Shown: positions 15,458 through 23,323 of the stretch, piece after piece
Numbering within the stretch: position 1 is the first letter of the stretch
Layout of the letters: each line of letters starts with the position of its first letter
Assembly: GCF_056712565.1 (NCBI RefSeq)
Contig: NZ_CM160072.1
DNA length: 64,000 nucleotides
Reading direction: 5' to 3' (one strand)
The notes under the pieces: generated by a model
What the model saw: the letters and a program-made list of their open reading frames with translations, nothing else
The model's database searches: none
Told to the model about the DNA's origin: nothing
Translations under genes and position numbers: made by a program

Positions 15458-16233
15458 TTTGCCGTTTTATCGACACCCACTGCCATTTTGATTTCCCGCC
15501 GTTTAGTGGCGATGAAGAGGCCAGCCTGCAACGCGCGGCACAAGCGGGCGTAGGCAAGATCATTGTTCCGGCGACAGAGGCGGAAAATTTTGCCCGCGTG
15601 CAGGCGTTAGCGGAAAAATATCAACCGCTGTATGCCGCATTGGGCTTACATCCTGGTATGTTGGAAAAACATAGCGATGTGTCTCTTGATCAGCTACAGC
15701 AGGCGCTGGAAAGGCATCCGGCGAAGGTGGTGGCGGTGGGGGAGATCGGTCTGGATCTCTTTGGCGACGATCCGCAATTTGAGAGGCAGCAGTGGTTACT
15801 CGACGAACAACTGAAACTGGCGAAACGCTACGATCTGCCGGTGATCCTGCATTCACGACGCACGCACGACAAACTGGCGATGCATCTTAAACGCCACGAT
15901 TTACCGTGCACTGGCGTGGTTCATGGTTTTTCCGGCAGCCTGCAACAGGCCGAACGGTTTGTGCAACTGGGCTACAAAATTGGCGTAGGCGGGACTATCA
16001 CCTATCCACGCGCCAGTAAAACCCGCGATGTCATCGCAAAATTACCGCTGGCATCGTTGTTGCTGGAAACCGACGCACCAGATATGCCGCTCAATGGTTT
16101 TCAGGGGCAGCCTAATCGCCCTGAACAGGCCGCCCGTGTGTTTGCCGTGCTTTGCGAGTTACGACCGGAACCGGCGGATGAGATTGCCGAAGTGTTGCTT
16201 AATAACACCTATACGTTGTTTAACGTGCCGTAG
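15454..16233 (+). CDS. yjjV: TatD-family metal-dependent hydrolase YjjV
   Basis: 259-aa ORF from TTG; N-terminal IDTHCHFDF TatD motif; overlaps yjjU stop by 4 nt. Confidence 0.9.
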   Translation: MICRFIDTHCHFDFPPFSGDEEASLQRAAQAGVGKIIVPATEAENFARVQALAEKYQPLYAALGLHPGMLEKHSDVSLDQLQQALERHPAKVVAVGEIGLDLFGDDPQFERQQWLLDEQLKLAKRYDLPVILHSRRTHDKLAMHLKRHDLPCTGVVHGFSGSLQQAERFVQLGYKIGVGGTITYPRASKTRDVIAKLPLASLLLETDAPDMPLNGFQGQPNRPEQAARVFAVLCELRPEPADEIAEVLLNNTYTLFNVP

Positions 16234-16448
16234 GCCGGACAAGGCGTTTACGCCGCATCCGGCCGTTGGCGCACAATGCCTGATGCGACGCTGACGCGTC
16301 TTATCATGCCTACAAGTCTGTGCCGAACCGTAGGCCGGATAAGGCGTTCACGCCGCATCCGGCAGCTGGCGCACAATGCCTGATGCGACGCTTGACGCGT
16401 CTTATCATGCCTACAGGTCTGTGCCGATCCGTAGGCCACATCCGGCAT
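16231..16448. repeat. BIME/REP cluster: ~100-bp unit tandemly duplicated with a third partial copy
   Basis: taggccggacaaggcgtttacgccgcatccggcc...tgcctgatgcgacgctgacgcgtcttatcatgcctacaagtctgtgccgaaccg (16231-16330) is repeated with a few substitutions at 16331-16431, then a fragment taggccacatccggc; each unit contains REP-type palindromes. Confidence 0.8.
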
Positions 16449-16449
16449 G

Positions 16450-17313
16450 TCACAAATATAGCGCCGGAAATATTAACCGGCTCACCCCGCGCTCCCGTAA
16501 CGCATCAGCCAGTTGTTCCACATCCTCCGGCGTGGCGCTCGGCCAGCTTTGCGCCTCGCCATACACGCCGTGGGCATGAAACGCGTTCAGGCGTACCGGA
16601 ACATCGCCAAGTCCCTTGATTAACGCCGCCAGTTCTTCGATATGTTGCAAATAATCCACCTGGCCAGGGATTACCAGCAAACGCAGTTCCGCCAGCTTAC
16701 CGCGCTCTGCCAGCAAACAGATGCTGCGCTTGATCTGCTGATTATCGCGTCCGGTTAATTGCTGATGACATTCGCTCCCCCACGCTTTGAGATCGAGCAT
16801 TGCGCCGTCACACACCGGGAGCAATTTTTCCCAGCCGGTTTCGCTCAACATGCCGTTACTGTCCACGAGGCAGGTGAGATGGCACAGTTGCGGATCGTTT
16901 TTGATGGCAGTAAACAGCGCCACCACAAACGGCAACTGGGTCGTGGCTTCGCCGCCGCTTACCGTTATCCCTTCAATAAACAGAACCGCTTTGCGGACAT
17001 GGTTAAGCACCTCGTCCACGCTCATGGATTGCGCCATTGGCGTAGCATGTTGCGGACACATCTTCAGGCAGGTATCACATTGCTCGCAGACAGCCGCGCT
17101 CCACGCCACTTTGCCGTCGACAATCTGCAACGCCTGATGCGGACACTGCGGCACGCACTCTCCGCAATCATTACAGCGCCCCATCGTCCACGGATTGTGA
17201 CAGTTTTTGCAGCGCAGATTGCAGCCCTGCAAAAACAGAGCCAGACGACTGCCTGGCCCGTCAACGCAGGAGAAGGGGATAATCTTACTGACTAAAGCGC
17301 ATCTGCTGTTCAT
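16450..17313 (-). CDS. yjjW: Glycyl-radical-enzyme activating enzyme (radical SAM) YjjW
   Basis: 287-aa ORF; radical [11 protein letters not shown] near N-terminus plus two ferredoxin-like clusters [12 protein letters not shown] and [12 protein letters not shown]. Confidence 0.9.
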
Positions 17314-18835
17314 GGCTTATCACGCGCGGCTGGCGTTCCAGAATACGAGTGTTGCGTGCGGCTTCTTCTCCCAGCCAGGTGGTGTTGGTGCGTGAACCTT
17401 CGGCGCGATATTTTTCTAAATCCGACAAACGCACCATATAACCGGTAACGCGAACCAGATCGTTACCGCTGACATTGGCGGTAAATTCACGCATTCCAGC
17501 TTTAAAGGCACCGAGGCAAAGCTGTACCAGCGCCTGCGGATTACGTTTGATGGTTTCGTCGAGCGTCAGAATGTCGCTGATGCCGGAATAATAATAAGCA
17601 TGATGCGGGGCGACAGTTTGCAGATGGGTAATCGGATCTGGCTCATCACCATACGGCAAACGCGCGCCCGGCGTGGTGCCGATATCGGAACTTATCCCCG
17701 ACTGTGCGTGTAACATGGCGCGTTTTTGCCAGCCATATTTCACGGGGGTATTGGCGACAAACTCCGCCAGTTGCGCGCTAATGCGATAACCCACTTCATT
17801 TGCGGCGGCCTCTTTACCGTAGCGTGCGGCAATCCCTTCTTTTTCACACAGCAAGTTAACCGCTTCCGCCAGCCCATACATGCCAAACATCGGCACAAAA
17901 CGTTCAGGGTTAATCAGCCCTTCTTTCACCAGGAAGCTATTCTCAAAGAAGTGTGATTGTTGATAGAGGAATTCACACCGCGCATCGATGATGGCGATCT
18001 GCTGTTGGCAGTAGTGCGGTAGAGTGCGCGTAAAGAAGTCCTCCAGCGATTCACTGCGCTCGGCAATGGCTTTCAGGTTTAGGCGTACCAGCGTGCTGCC
18101 ACCACCCGCCAGCGGCAGTGAGTTGTAACAGCTCACAATCCCGTAGCCCCCTTTTGTGAAAATTTTATCATGCACCGGACCGTTGGCGATGTGCGGTTTG
18201 CTACATTCACAGATGTTTTTCGCCACTTCCAGCAGCAGGTCATCAGGGGTGATATCAGGATCGTAGATAAAGGTCAGGTTCGGTGAAACCTGCTTCAGCT
18301 CTGCGTCTGCACGTAATATCGCACGGGTAATGGGCGAATCAGACGGGCCGATATTGGCATGCATAAAGGCGTCTGGCAGGGTTCTGTCGAGGTAACGCCA
18401 GAAACGTTTTATTCGAATATCGATCTCGTCTTGTGTTAGAATTCTAACATACGGTTGCAACAACGCATCCAGTTGCCCCAGGTAGACCGGCATCGATGTG
18501 ACCGACGGTACATGGTGGTAAAGAATGGTCAGCAGAGAGAGTGCGTCATCAAGGTCTTTCGCGCCTTCCAGCTCCAGCCATTCGGAACCGTTGGCCAAAA
18601 AACGGGCGTAATCGGGTAAGACATAGCGCGGTTTGTACGGCGCATGACCTTCAAACATATCGCAGATTACCCCCTCATCCAGCGCGCGGCGGGCTTCGGC
18701 AGGCAGCTGTGGGTAAGGCAGATTGTTTTCTGCTTCCAGTGCCAGAAAATGGCGCTTCTGCTCCGGGCTAAGTACCGGGCTGGTGACAATTTGCTGGCAA
18801 CGTTGTTGCAGTGCATTTTCATGAGAAGTGGGCAT
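17285..18835 (-). CDS. yjjI: Glycine-radical-enzyme-family protein YjjI (DUF3029), substrate unknown
   Basis: 516-aa ORF; C-terminal region contains RVTGY resembling the glycyl-radical RVSGY motif; 29-nt overlap with downstream yjjW. Confidence 0.85.
18434..18449 (+). promoter_or_regulatory. DeoR operator O1 (deoP1), lying inside the yjjI coding sequence
   Basis: Perfect 16-bp palindrome TGTTAGAATTCTAACA; exactly 599 bp upstream of the second copy at 19033. Confidence 0.8.
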
Positions 18836-18929
18836 CTTCTTTTCCTTTTATGCCGAAGGTGATGCGCCATTGTAAGAAGTTTCGTGATGTTCACTTTGAT
18901 CCTGATGCGTTTGCCACCACTGACGCATT

Positions 18930-19030
18930 CATTTGAAAGTGAATTATTTGAACCAGATCGCATTACAGTGATGCAAACTTGTAAGTAGATTTCCTTAATT
19001 GTGATGTACATCGAAGTGTGTTGCGGAGTA
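18930..19030 (+). promoter_or_regulatory. deoP2 upstream region with CRP/CytR-type half-sites
   Basis: TGTGA-like half sites (agtgaattatttgaacc; aattgtgatgtacatcgaagtgtg) upstream of O2. Assignment to CRP/CytR rests on recalled deoP2 architecture; exact sites not resolved. Confidence 0.4.
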
Positions 19031-19032
19031 GA

Positions 19033-19048
19033 TGTTAGAATACTAACA
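19033..19048 (+). promoter_or_regulatory. DeoR operator O2 (deoP2)
   Basis: Near-perfect palindrome TGTTAGAATACTAACA, 45 bp upstream of the deoC ATG. Confidence 0.8.
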
Positions 19049-19092
19049 AACTCGCAAGGTGAATTTTATTGGCGACAAGCCAGGAGAATGAA

Positions 19093-19872
19093 ATGACTGA
19101 TCTGAAAGCAAGCAGCCTGCGTGCACTGAAATTGATGGACCTGACCACCCTGAATGACGACGACACCGATGAGAAAGTGATCGCCCTGTGTCATCAGGCC
19201 AAAACTCCGGTCGGCAATACCGCCGCTATCTGTATCTATCCTCGCTTTATCCCGATTGCTCGCAAAACGCTGAAAGAGCAGGGCACCCCGGAAATCCGTA
19301 TCGCTACGGTAACTAACTTCCCACACGGTAACGACGACATCGAAATCGCGCTGGCAGAAACCCGTGCGGCAATCGCCTACGGTGCCGATGAAGTTGACGT
19401 GGTGTTCCCGTACCGCGCGCTGATGGCGGGTAACGAGCAGGTTGGTTTTGACCTGGTGAAAGCCTGTAAAGAGGCTTGCGCTGCGGCGAACGTACTGCTG
19501 AAAGTGATTATTGAAACCGGCGAACTGAAAGACGAAGCGCTGATCCGTAAAGCGTCTGAAATCTCCATCAAAGCGGGTGCTGACTTCATCAAAACCTCTA
19601 CCGGTAAAGTGGCTGTGAATGCGACGCCGGAAAGCGCGCGCATCATGATGGAAGTGATCCGCGATATGGGCGTAGAAAAAATCGTTGGTTTCAAACCGGC
19701 GGGCGGCGTGCGTACTGCGGAAGATGCGCAGAAATATCTCGCCATTGCAGATGAACTGTTCGGTGCTGACTGGGCTGATGCGCGTCACTACCGCTTTGGT
19801 GCTTCCAGCTTGCTGGCAAGCCTGCTGAAAGCTCTGGGCCACGGCGACGGTAAGAGCGCCAGCAGCTACTAA
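19093..19872 (+). CDS. deoC: Deoxyribose-phosphate aldolase
   Basis: ORF-track frame 19069..19872; ATG at 19093 gives [25 protein letters not shown] (259 aa); first gene of the deoCABD cluster. Confidence 0.95.
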
Positions 19873-19949
19873 GGCTTGATTTGCCGGATGATGCAGCGAT
19901 GCTCATCCGGTTCCCCGATTACCTCGTCTCTTTTCCACGGGAGGTTACC

Positions 19950-21272
19950 TTGTTTCTCGCACAAGAAATTATTCGTAAAAAACGTGATGGTCATGCGCTG
20001 AGTGATGAAGAAATTCGTTTCTTTATCAACGGCATTCGCGACAACACTATCTCCGAAGGGCAGATTGCCGCCCTCGCGATGACCATTTTCTTCCACGATA
20101 TGACAATGCCTGAGCGTGTCTCGCTGACCATGGCGATGCGAGATTCAGGAACCGTTCTCGACTGGAAAAGCCTGCATCTGAATGGCCCGATTGTTGATAA
20201 ACACTCGACCGGCGGTGTCGGCGATGTGACTTCGCTGATGTTGGGGCCGATGGTCGCTGCCTGTGGCGGCTATATTCCGATGATCTCCGGTCGCGGCCTC
20301 GGTCATACTGGCGGTACGCTCGACAAACTGGAATCCATCCCTGGCTTCGACATTTTCCCGGATGACAACCGTTTCCGCGAAATTATTAAAGACGTCGGCG
20401 TGGCGATTATCGGCCAGACCAGCTCACTGGCTCCGGCGGATAAACGTTTCTACGCGACCCGCGATATTACCGCAACCGTGGATTCAATCCCGCTGATCAC
20501 CGCCTCTATTCTGGCGAAGAAACTGGCGGAAGGTCTGGACGCGCTGGTGATGGACGTGAAAGTGGGTAGCGGCGCGTTTATGCCGACCTACGAACTCTCT
20601 GAAGCCCTTGCCGAAGCGATTGTTGGCGTGGCTAACGGCGCTGGCGTGCGCACCACCGCGCTGCTCACCGATATGAATCAGGTACTGGCCTCCAGTGCAG
20701 GTAACGCGGTTGAAGTTCGTGAAGCGGTGCAGTTCCTGACGGGTGAATATCGTAACCCGCGTCTGTTTGATGTCACGATGGCACTGTGCGTGGAGATGCT
20801 GATCTCCGGCAAACTGGCGAAAAATGACGCCGAAGCGCGCGCGAAATTGCAGGCGGTGCTGGACAACGGTAAAGCGGCAGAAGTCTTTGGTCGTATGGTC
20901 GCGGCACAAAAAGGCCCGACCGACTTCGTTGAGAACTACGCGAAGTATCTGCCGACAGCGATGCTGACGAAAGCAGTCTATGCTGATACCGAAGGGTTTG
21001 TCAGTGAAATGGATACCCGCGCACTGGGGATGACAGTGGTTGCAATGGGCGGCGGACGCCGTCAGGCATCTGACACCATCGATTACAGCGTCGGCTTTAC
21101 TGATATGGCGCGTCTGGGCGACCAGGTAGACGGTCAGCGTCCGCTGGCAGTTATCCACGCGAAAGACGAAAACAGCTGGCAGGAAGCGGCGAAAGCGGTG
21201 AAAGCGGCAATTAAACTTGCCGATAAAGCACCGGAAAGCACACCAACTGTCTATCGCCGTATCAGCGAATAA
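19950..21272 (+). CDS. deoA: Thymidine phosphorylase
   Basis: ORF-track frame 19881..21272; TTG at 19950 gives (M)[25 protein letters not shown] (440 aa). Confidence 0.93.
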
Positions 21273-21302
21273 CGGTATACTGATCTGATCATTTAAATTT
21301 GA

Positions 21303-22547
<1,245 letters not shown>

Positions 22548-22603
22548 TGGATTTGGGCGGAGCAGTGACTCCGCCTTTAATATGTCACAAAAAGGATAAA
22601 ATG

Positions 22604-23323
22604 ATGGCTACTCCACACATTAATGCAGAAATGGGCGATTTTGCTGACGTAGTTTTGATGCCAGGTGACCCGCTGCGTGCGAAGTATATTGCTGAAACTT
22701 TCCTTGAAGATGCCCGTGAAGTGAACAACGTTCGCGGTATGCTGGGCTTCACTGGTACTTACAAAGGCCGCAAAATTTCCGTAATGGGCCACGGTATGGG
22801 TATCCCGTCCTGCTCCATCTACACCAAAGAACTGATCACTGATTTCGGCGTGAAGAAAATTATCCGCGTTGGTTCCTGTGGCGCTGTTCTGCCGCACGTA
22901 AAACTGCGCGACGTCGTTATCGGTATGGGTGCCTGCACCGATTCCAAAGTTAACCGCATCCGTTTTAAAGACCATGACTTTGCCGCTATCGCTGACTTCG
23001 ACATGGTGCGTAACGCGGTAGACGCGGCAAAAGCACTGGGCGTTGATGCTCGTGTTGGTAACCTGTTCTCCGCTGACCTGTTCTACTCTCCGGACGGCGA
23101 AATGTTCGACGTGATGGAAAAATACGGCATCCTCGGCGTGGAAATGGAAGCGGCTGGTATCTACGGCGTCGCTGCAGAATTTGGCGCGAAAGCCCTGACC
23201 ATCTGCACCGTGTCTGACCACATCCGCACTCACGAGCAGACCACTGCCGCTGAGCGTCAGACCACCTTCAACGACATGATCAAAATCGCGCTGGAATCCG
23301 TTCTGCTGGGCGATAAAGAGTAA
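22604..23323 (+). CDS. deoD: Purine nucleoside phosphorylase
   Basis: ORF-track frame 22547..23323; ATG at 22604 gives [34 protein letters not shown] (239 aa). Confidence 0.95.

Follow-up and report, generated by a model that had tools for sequence, protein, structure and literature searches.

YjjI and YjjW, a glycyl radical enzyme pair beside the deo operon of Escherichia coli, and their recurrent association with nucleoside utilisation genes

Divergent from the deoCABD operon for nucleoside catabolism, Escherichia coli carries two overlapping genes, yjjI and yjjW, which raise the question of what a glycyl radical enzyme might act on in such company, and whether its place beside deoC is more than an accident of gene order. 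We analysed the pair in a stretch of 64,000 nucleotides (contig NZ_CM160072.1 of RefSeq assembly GCF_056712565.1; hereafter the window), for which an earlier reading by a model that saw only the letters and their open reading frames (ORFs), here called the sequence-only reading, had proposed a conserved glycyl-radical enzyme pair whose reaction is uncharacterised. There is little room for doubt that YjjI and YjjW are a glycyl radical enzyme and its dedicated radical S-adenosylmethionine (radical-SAM) activase, as that reading held: the family models score far above their cut-offs, and the fold model and the alignments agree. Gene neighbourhoods in distant lineages make a role of the pair in nucleoside utilisation fairly probable, and we take it, with moderate confidence, to be an anaerobically expressed radical system serving most likely in anaerobic nucleoside use. 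The genes concerned are listed here with coordinates from the ORF listing, and RefSeq annotates an E. coli record of identical sequence in the same way.

16450–17313, minus strand: yjjW coding sequence, 287 aa, radical-SAM activase type with a ferredoxin-like insert
17285–18835, minus strand: yjjI coding sequence, 516 aa, YjjI-family glycyl radical enzyme with a predicted minimal ten-stranded barrel
17285–17313, minus strand: overlap of the yjjI 3′ end and the yjjW 5′ end, 29 nt
19093–23323, plus strand: deoCABD operon, divergent from yjjI, a candidate functional partner by context

YjjI matches the family model PF11230 at E = 2e-220 (732.5 bits, cut-off 23) and TIGR04040 at 787.8 bits (curated cut-off 498.3). 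When the E. coli protein was scanned against Pfam (E ≤ 0.01), PF11230 was the sole family returned, and among the homologues PF02901 is present just as weak or faint precomputed matches. A search of the PDB sequences with YjjI as single query gave just a spurious 95-aa match (E = 1.1) and no relative at the sequence level; a profile of 23 diverse homologues gave weak matches (E = 0.003–0.03) to pyruvate formate-lyase (PFL), YbiW, hydroxyphenylacetate (HPA) decarboxylase and NrdD, the class III ribonucleotide reductase (RNR), aligning YGIVS-C236-YN with PFL YAIAC418-C419-VS and vRvtGY with PFL IRVSG734Y. The AlphaFold2 model (predicted local distance difference test, pLDDT, 92.2; predicted template modelling score, pTM, 0.91) has ten barrel strands and two hairpins, which is the architecture of the superfamily, a ten-stranded alpha/beta barrel with two finger loops meeting at its centre. 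The solved structures nearest to this model are class III RNRs, followed by PFL-like enzymes, and hhalign likewise assigns YjjI a probability of 88.9% to E. coli NrdD and 72% to PflB. The NrdD alignment is out of register near the cysteine loop, and the PflB alignment, in which the cysteine and glycine loops are both in register with YjjI, was taken for that loop; the NrdD alignment was applied just to the strand bearing C175, with a local alignment as cross-check. As modelled, YjjI is a minimal glycyl radical barrel to which NrdD is structurally nearest.

The residues and motifs on which the assignment turns are as follows.

17438–17452, minus strand: glycine loop R462-V-T-G465-Y466 of YjjI (G465 codon 17441–17443), predicted glycyl radical site by alignment to PFL IRVSG734Y
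18122–18133, minus strand: cysteine loop S235-C236-Y237-N238 of YjjI (C236 codon 18128–18130), predicted thiyl radical site
YjjI S235-C236: aligned with PFL C418-C419
YjjI R251: aligned with PFL R435
YjjI Y71, following R70: aligned with PFL R176 and NrdD C175
YjjI N238: the Cys+2 position, Glu in eliminases
17200–17223, minus strand: YjjW C31-x3-C35-x2-C38, radical-SAM [4Fe-4S] ligands, aligned to the PflA cluster motif
17143–17175, minus strand: YjjW C47-x2-C50-x2-C53-x3-C57, ferredoxin-type cluster motif 1
17056–17088, minus strand: YjjW C76-x2-C79-x2-C82-x3-C86, ferredoxin-type cluster motif 2

The glycine loop is modelled as a hairpin between strands 460–462 and 467–469, and the cysteine loop as another between strands 231–234 and 238–241. 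YjjI has the C-terminal R-V-x-G-[FWY] of the superfamily, R462 and G465 are invariant across two sets of 23 and 18 diverse homologues, and the RVTGY that the sequence-only reading had noticed near the C-terminus (residues 462–466) does align, on careful alignment, with PFL G734. A strict PROSITE-type pattern ([STIV]-x-R-[IVT]-[CSA]-G-Y-x-[GACV]) matches neither YjjI nor any of the aligned members (0/41), so that ‘glycyl-radical-like motif’, the phrase used in that reading, is the right wording. The cysteines of YjjI are at positions 13, 58, 209, 211, 236, 276, 287, 330 and 440 only, and among them C236, aligned with PFL C419, is the sole invariant cysteine of the family (23 + 18 homologues). 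Residues invariant in two clades that are just 34–40% identical include E62, R70, Y71, H159, N186, S235, C236, N238, R251, E305, H376, Q378, G380, R392, R462 and G465.

YjjW scores 398.8 bits against TIGR04041 (cut-off 250.2), with HypD, PflC, HpsH and CutD-type activases as the next-best models, and it matches the PflA structure 3c8f at E = 5e-18 with its DGPGxR loop aligned. The full cysteine set of a radical-SAM activase, claimed from the letters, is present, as CX3CX2C at residues 31–38 and CX2CX2CX3C at 47–57 and 76–86; Pfam matches of the Fer4 family span residues 44–90, and a two-cluster ferredoxin insert of this kind is typical of the activases of PFL-like eliminases. Against NrdG models YjjW reaches 46.8–62.5 bits, below cut-offs of 126–131, and is not an NrdG-type activase. 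A YjjW-like gene accompanies yjjI at 94/96 and 88/95 loci, as befits a dedicated activase. Among the loci without one, four metagenomic contigs (L103, L104, L105 and L107), Pasteurellaceae-like by neighbourhood though unconfirmed as such, have yjjI flanked by pgk, fba and recQ-like genes, with no YjjW-like ORF in the available flanks. At locus L081 (1264–2805) the gene for the YjjI homologue P0145 has an ABC permease gene on one side, pth on the other and no adjacent activase; translated under table 11, the yjjI-like gene does not yield P0145, and an alternative genetic code may be in use.

Judged by its sequence, YjjI belongs within the glycyl radical superfamily and outside each characterised class, that is NrdD, PFL and the G-C-x-E eliminases. 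NrdD is 712 aa long against 516 aa for YjjI, and has ATP-cone and NRDD domains where Pfam reports none for YjjI at E ≤ 0.01; its C-terminal Cys4 zinc site (CxxC...CxxC) is without counterpart, the last cysteine of YjjI being C440, and in place of the bottom-face C175, which in NrdD serves the reductive half-reaction together with Met382, YjjI has Y71 and conserves no second cysteine or methionine. NrdG, at about 154 aa, is without ferredoxin-type motifs, whereas YjjW has two such extra clusters. PflB resembles YjjI in its glycine loop (IRVSG734Y against VRVTG465Y), in a cysteine loop in register, in R251 at the position of R435 and in PNLT and TPxxR-type motifs carried by both proteins, and the activation mechanism of YjjW is presumably like that of PflA (E = 5e-18, as above), although PflA is without the ferredoxin insert. 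YjjI is nevertheless about 245 residues shorter than PflB and does not share the PFL feature for keto-acid binding, a Cys-Cys pair with Arg176 and Arg435: PflB C418-C419 corresponds to S235-C236 and R176 to Y71, and just the equivalent of R435 (R251) is retained. A catalytic Glu at Cys+2 defines the 1,2-eliminase group. The eliminases and dehydratases compared here (glycerol and propanediol dehydratase, CutC, HypD, IslA and the sugar-phosphate dehydratases PflD and YbiW, with three-cluster activases) all carry it, whereas YjjI has S-C-Y-N, with invariant N238, in place of G-C-x-E. They are also 250–350 residues longer than YjjI, which forms a separate family in both Pfam and NCBIfam, and no microcompartment genes occur among the annotated YjjI neighbours. 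Structures of PflD and YbiW with sugar-phosphate ligands were released in 2024.

If the protein itself places YjjI between known classes, its genomic surroundings say more about what it may act on. The family is small: at 50% identity it resolves into 539 clusters in a set of 1.84 billion representatives, a good share of these clusters being fragments, and among some 100,000 species genomes at least 593 encode it. Hosts are found in Enterobacterales, Vibrionaceae, Shewanella, Gilliamella, Rhodobacteraceae and Hyphomicrobiales, with a second clade in Pasteurellaceae, Erysipelotrichaceae, Clostridia and marine metagenome contigs. Across 80 proteobacterial loci yjjW is the sole universal partner; a divergent deoCABD beside the pair is confined to Enterobacteriaceae, Hafnia and Edwardsiella. 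Nucleoside genes turn up in other arrangements as well. In Gilliamella a single strand carries add-cpdB-cdd-deoA-ushA-yjjI-yjjW (where add, cpdB, cdd and ushA were named by reading their sequences rather than by family search), and Actinobacillus has yjjI-yjjW-nupC. Three loci of distant homologues read IU_nuc_hydro-ADP_ribosyl_GH-PfkB-PNP-sulfatase-like-YjjI-YjjW-MFS-Bmp-ABC, YjjI-YjjW convergent with ADP_ribosyl_GH-IU_nuc_hydro-permease, and A_deaminase-PfkB-YjjW-YjjI (MFS, major facilitator superfamily; ABC, ATP-binding cassette). A 199-kb marine contig has 13 genes on one strand in the order RbsR-ribokinase-RihC-DeoD-sulfatase-like-YjjI-YjjW-NupG-like-Bmp-ABC-permease-permease-DeoD.

A metagenome scan with longest-ORF gene calls, blastp clustering and Pfam searches of cluster representatives added 79 loci. 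YjjW apart, the neighbours met most often are Bmp/PnrA binding proteins with their ABC ATPase and permeases, IU_nuc_hydro, PfkB, PNP_UDP_1, NupC and LacI/RbsR-like regulators, and Cdd, DeoC and a DeoB-type mutase are also found in the same gene runs. A nucleoside-type gene lies no more than six genes away at 41 of 77 loci, or in 23 of 41 lineages when loci are grouped at 80% YjjI identity, and such genes make up 113 of 597 near genes as against 16 of 237 far ones. In the distant clade the pair directly adjoins a nucleoside-transporter gene on the same strand at 27/92 loci (16/48 lineages), and these transporters come from three families unrelated to one another, Bmp-ABC, NupC and NupG-like MFS. 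The sequence-only reading had remarked that the pair adjoins nucleoside catabolism genes and had proposed a comparison of genome neighbourhoods across Enterobacteriaceae; the wider comparison made here shows the nucleoside association recurring with varied gene orders in distant lineages, and the remark proved the most informative part of the reading. Since nucleoside neighbours recur in distant lineages, the deo adjacency of yjjI-yjjW is probably functional.

Other genes near the pair deserve mention in their own right. AlkD-like (DNA_alkylation) genes stand in same-strand runs beside yjjI-yjjW at five loci (L148, L153, L155, L156 and L159) and HhH-GPD genes at three (L119, L165 and L177); such homologues of DNA base-excision glycosylases hint that modified bases or nucleosides may be processed. 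Directly upstream of yjjI in the marine nucleoside clusters, at L083 (3806–5341) and L096 (8376–9911), a gene encodes a sulfatase-like protein of 511 aa from the alkaline-phosphatase superfamily, which reaches no NCBIfam cut-off and might be an analogue of a mutase or else an esterase. A tex gene, for a Tex-like RNA-binding protein, lies within two genes of the pair in Gilliamella (L036–L044) and Erysipelotrichaceae (L093/L094), possibly by coincidence. Small conserved ORFs after yjjW (metagenomic clusters 14 and 40) match no family at E ≤ 0.01; in Pasteurellaceae a divergent gene beside the pair encodes a 221-aa protein with just a sub-threshold match to YitT_membrane (E = 6e-4, 19.7 bits against a cut-off of 24.3). 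P0004, a 574-aa protein in which DeoC (1–108) is in frame with YjjI from about residue 52, was considered as a domain fusion and set aside: it is a single sequence on a 2.9-kb contig, and probably a rearrangement, such as an inversion, or an assembly chimera of the two divergent genes.

In the window itself the local gene order is prfC, osmY, yjjU, yjjV, two repetitive extragenic palindrome/bacterial interspersed mosaic element (REP/BIME) units, yjjW and yjjI on the minus strand, and then deoC, deoA, deoB and deoD on the plus strand, with deoC starting at 19093 on the other strand, 257 bp upstream of yjjI. The 29-nt overlap noted from the letters is borne out and probably couples the translation of yjjW to that of yjjI; ahead of the yjjW ATG no clear Shine-Dalgarno sequence was seen, and homologous pairs overlap by 4–17 nt or are spaced by 1–3 nt. 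The pair had also been called core rather than accessory, which holds for E. coli: the 2.9-kb yjjI-yjjW region is covered to at least 80% in 5422/5426 complete genomes, and is 100% identical to that of strains including NU14 and APEC O18. The two REP/BIME units, in tandem and of about 100 bp each, lie between the yjjV and yjjW stop codons (16228–16446) and match Rfam naRNA4 (RF02564) above its gathering score at 16233–16310 and 16333–16411 on the plus strand.

The yjjI-deoC interval and the start of yjjI carry regulatory sites that bear on when the pair is expressed.

18836–19092, unstranded: yjjI-deoC intergenic region, holding DeoR operator O2 and a CRP/FNR-like site
18434–18449, unstranded: DeoR operator O1, a perfect 16-bp palindrome in yjjI codons Y129–T134 (YVRILT)
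19033–19048, unstranded: DeoR operator O2, 198 bp upstream of the yjjI start
19001–19014, unstranded: CRP/FNR-like site, GTGATGTACATCGA, TTGAT-N4-ATCAA-like with 2 mismatches, the sole such match in the intergenic region

The intergenic region must contain the yjjI promoter; a consensus promoter scan of 18836–19092 and a terminator scan gave nothing above shuffled background. The window holds two matches to the DeoR operator where 0.14 would be expected, 599 bp apart. O1 belongs to deo regulation and physically overlaps yjjI, its codons encoding a variable loop of the family. If deoP1 is at O1, as we take it to be, its transcripts would run antisense through about 400 nt of the yjjI 5′ end; a DeoR loop between O1 and O2 would likewise enclose the 5′ end and promoter of yjjI, and the arrangement suggests that yjjI may be coupled to deoxyribonucleoside induction. 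The site at 19001–19014 coincides with a CRP site found by chromatin immunoprecipitation sequencing (ChIP-seq) in enterotoxigenic E. coli, where one such site lies inside yjjI and one between yjjI and deoC (PMC4287617). We do not claim it as an FNR box, since the window has 53 such matches against 33 expected and the CRP site overlaps it, and FNR control is therefore taken from published data alone. These report an FNR ChIP peak and FNR-dependent expression of yjjI, read as direct activation, with the transcription start site not known (PMC3688515), list yjjI as FNR-activated (PMC2634741) and give a 4.3-fold anaerobic induction in Yersinia (PMC3792023); a network study placed YjjI in a module for ‘degradation of deoxyribonucleosides’ (PMC2672614). 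A published reaction or functional assignment for either protein was not found in the full-text literature, subscription-only papers not being covered, and NCBIfam release 20 (June 2026) still types both TIGR04040 and TIGR04041 as ‘hypoth_equivalog’, as expected from the earlier statement that the reaction is uncharacterised. The pair is thus already catalogued as a family of hypothetical function and is not novel as an object; its gene context is the main addition made here.

How might such a system work? FNR would turn the operon on when oxygen is absent, as the published ChIP and expression data indicate. YjjW, with one radical-SAM and two ferredoxin-type [4Fe-4S] clusters, would then cleave S-adenosylmethionine and take a hydrogen from YjjI G465, by the logic of its family, and the radical would move from G465 to C236 on the opposing finger loop of the NrdD-like barrel, as the model and alignments suggest. 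The C236 thiyl radical would in turn abstract a hydrogen from the substrate, which by gene context may be an imported nucleoside, or a pentose or pentose phosphate released from one. The chemistry that we favour would begin, as in an RNR, by abstracting a hydrogen from the ribosyl ring and proceed by beta-elimination, making YjjI a redox-neutral lyase or dehydratase: a NrdD-like fold with no reducing cysteine points to elimination without net reduction, and RNR-type reduction is the less likely because the bottom-face cysteine is replaced by the invariant R70-Y71. Elimination on a ribosyl moiety is a tentative proposal all the same, and in our estimate more apt to prove wrong than right. As to the substrate, the invariant arginines would favour one with an anionic group, such as a pentose phosphate, and the minimal yjjI-yjjW-transporter operons favour the nucleoside itself.

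A bolder version, which we think unlikely, would make YjjI the signature enzyme of a radical anaerobic route for nucleosides and pentoses, performing the first half-reaction of an RNR only, with abstraction of the 3′-hydrogen and loss of the 2′ substituent. In one candidate reaction ribose-5-phosphate or a ribonucleoside would be dehydrated, and the resulting 3-keto-2-deoxy product could be split to acetaldehyde and a C3 acid phosphate; in another, 2′-O-methyl ribonucleosides scavenged from RNA would lose methanol. On such a route the AlkD-like, HhH-GPD and ADP-ribosylglycohydrolase-like neighbours would process unusual ribosides. A rough ATP balance showed no gain of ribose-to-deoxyribose reduction over the pentose phosphate route, and energetics is not used as an argument here.

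Several points weigh against a part in nucleoside use. No nucleoside genes lie near the pair in Vibrionaceae, Shewanella, Rhodobacteraceae and other alphaproteobacteria, Providencia, Fonticella and Erysipelotrichaceae, and with so many lineages lacking that context the nucleoside link of YjjI loci is strong, not universal. The counts behind it come from crude, longest-ORF gene calls in which the ABC ATPase cluster counts as nucleoside-type solely through its link with Bmp, and kinship among metagenomic loci is handled by the 80% de-replication alone. Two invariant arginines at PFL-like substrate positions, to judge from the alignments, would suit a carboxylate or phosphate and not a neutral nucleoside, and this mapping of active-site residues draws on sequence alignments. 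Canonical nucleoside catabolism needs no radical step, which leaves the physiological need unexplained, and the papers found report no radical, substrate or phenotype for YjjI/YjjW. Finally, yjjI is co-expressed with nitrate-respiration genes, from which a role in nitrogen metabolism has been suggested (PMC3228777).

The nearness to NrdD invites the proposal that YjjI is itself an RNR-related reductase, turning ribonucleosides or ribose phosphates into 2′-deoxy compounds with formate or a small reductant and so feeding DeoA/DeoC or deoxynucleoside salvage. The best structural matches are indeed all class III RNRs (hhalign to E. coli NrdD 88.9%), the nearest genes, deoC in E. coli and deoA in Gilliamella, are specific for deoxy compounds, and DeoC occurs in the same gene runs at unrelated loci. 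Yet the position of NrdD C175 is an invariant tyrosine with no second cysteine or methionine conserved, YjjI is without the C-terminal Cys4 zinc ribbon and the ATP-cone and NRDD domains (Pfam, E ≤ 0.01), and YjjW is not NrdG-like (46.8–62.5 bits against 126–131). E. coli nrdD mutants fail under strict anaerobiosis, so that YjjI is no replacement for NrdD, and we hold the reductase to be improbable. Much the same small weight goes to the proposal that YjjI acts on an anion unrelated to nucleosides, a carboxylate or some other phosphate ester, its neighbourhoods reflecting a shared anaerobic or regulatory context. Here R251 at the place of R435, the pyruvate-binding arginine of PFL, R70-Y71 at that of R176, the half or so of the lineages that lack nucleoside genes nearby, and a putative LysR-type regulator (by sequence reading) that recurs beside the pair in Vibrionaceae and Shewanella must be set against S235 in place of PFL C418, which makes a PFL-type keto-acid cleavage unlikely, and against the neighbours themselves: three transporter families adjoin the pair on the same strand in 16/48 lineages, often as minimal yjjI-yjjW-transporter operons, and varied enzymes of one pathway recur in different arrangements in Proteobacteria and in the clade that contains Firmicutes.

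We know of no glycyl radical chemistry on inorganic nitrogen species, and across about 170 loci genes for nitrate or nitrite do not recur beside the pair; both count against a role of YjjI in nitrogen metabolism, nitrate respiration or nitrosative stress. That idea comes from co-expression biclusters in E. coli and Salmonella expression data, where yjjI clusters with narGHJI and other nitrogen genes (PMC3228777), and in further transcriptome studies it falls into groups with nar, nap, nir and nrf genes. Shared FNR control explains this co-expression, and a nitrogen role seems to us very improbable. It is scarcely credible, finally, that the pair is a non-functional relic, or a spare glycyl radical module like GrcA, even with no phenotype in the papers found and some Pasteurellaceae-like contigs that have yjjI and no yjjW in the available flanks: YjjI has a complete barrel in which over 30 residues are invariant between clades 34–40% identical, where GrcA-like proteins are about 130 aa and consist of the glycine domain only, and the pair is kept in 5422/5426 E. 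coli genomes, regulated and expressed.

Among the glycyl radical enzymes of E. coli known to us, YjjI is the only one for which we found neither a reaction nor a solved structure. Its stripped-down barrel, placed between class III RNRs and PFL-like enzymes, bears on how radical chemistry on ribose and radical lyase chemistry are related, and the context analysis narrows its candidate substrates to a short list of purchasable compounds. If nucleosides or their sugars are indeed the substrate, YjjI and YjjW would add an oxygen-sensitive radical step to a deo/rih/rbs pathway that is usually deemed complete, and that step would run in facultative anaerobes of the gut, in marine bacteria and in two families with pathogenic members, Pasteurellaceae and Vibrionaceae.

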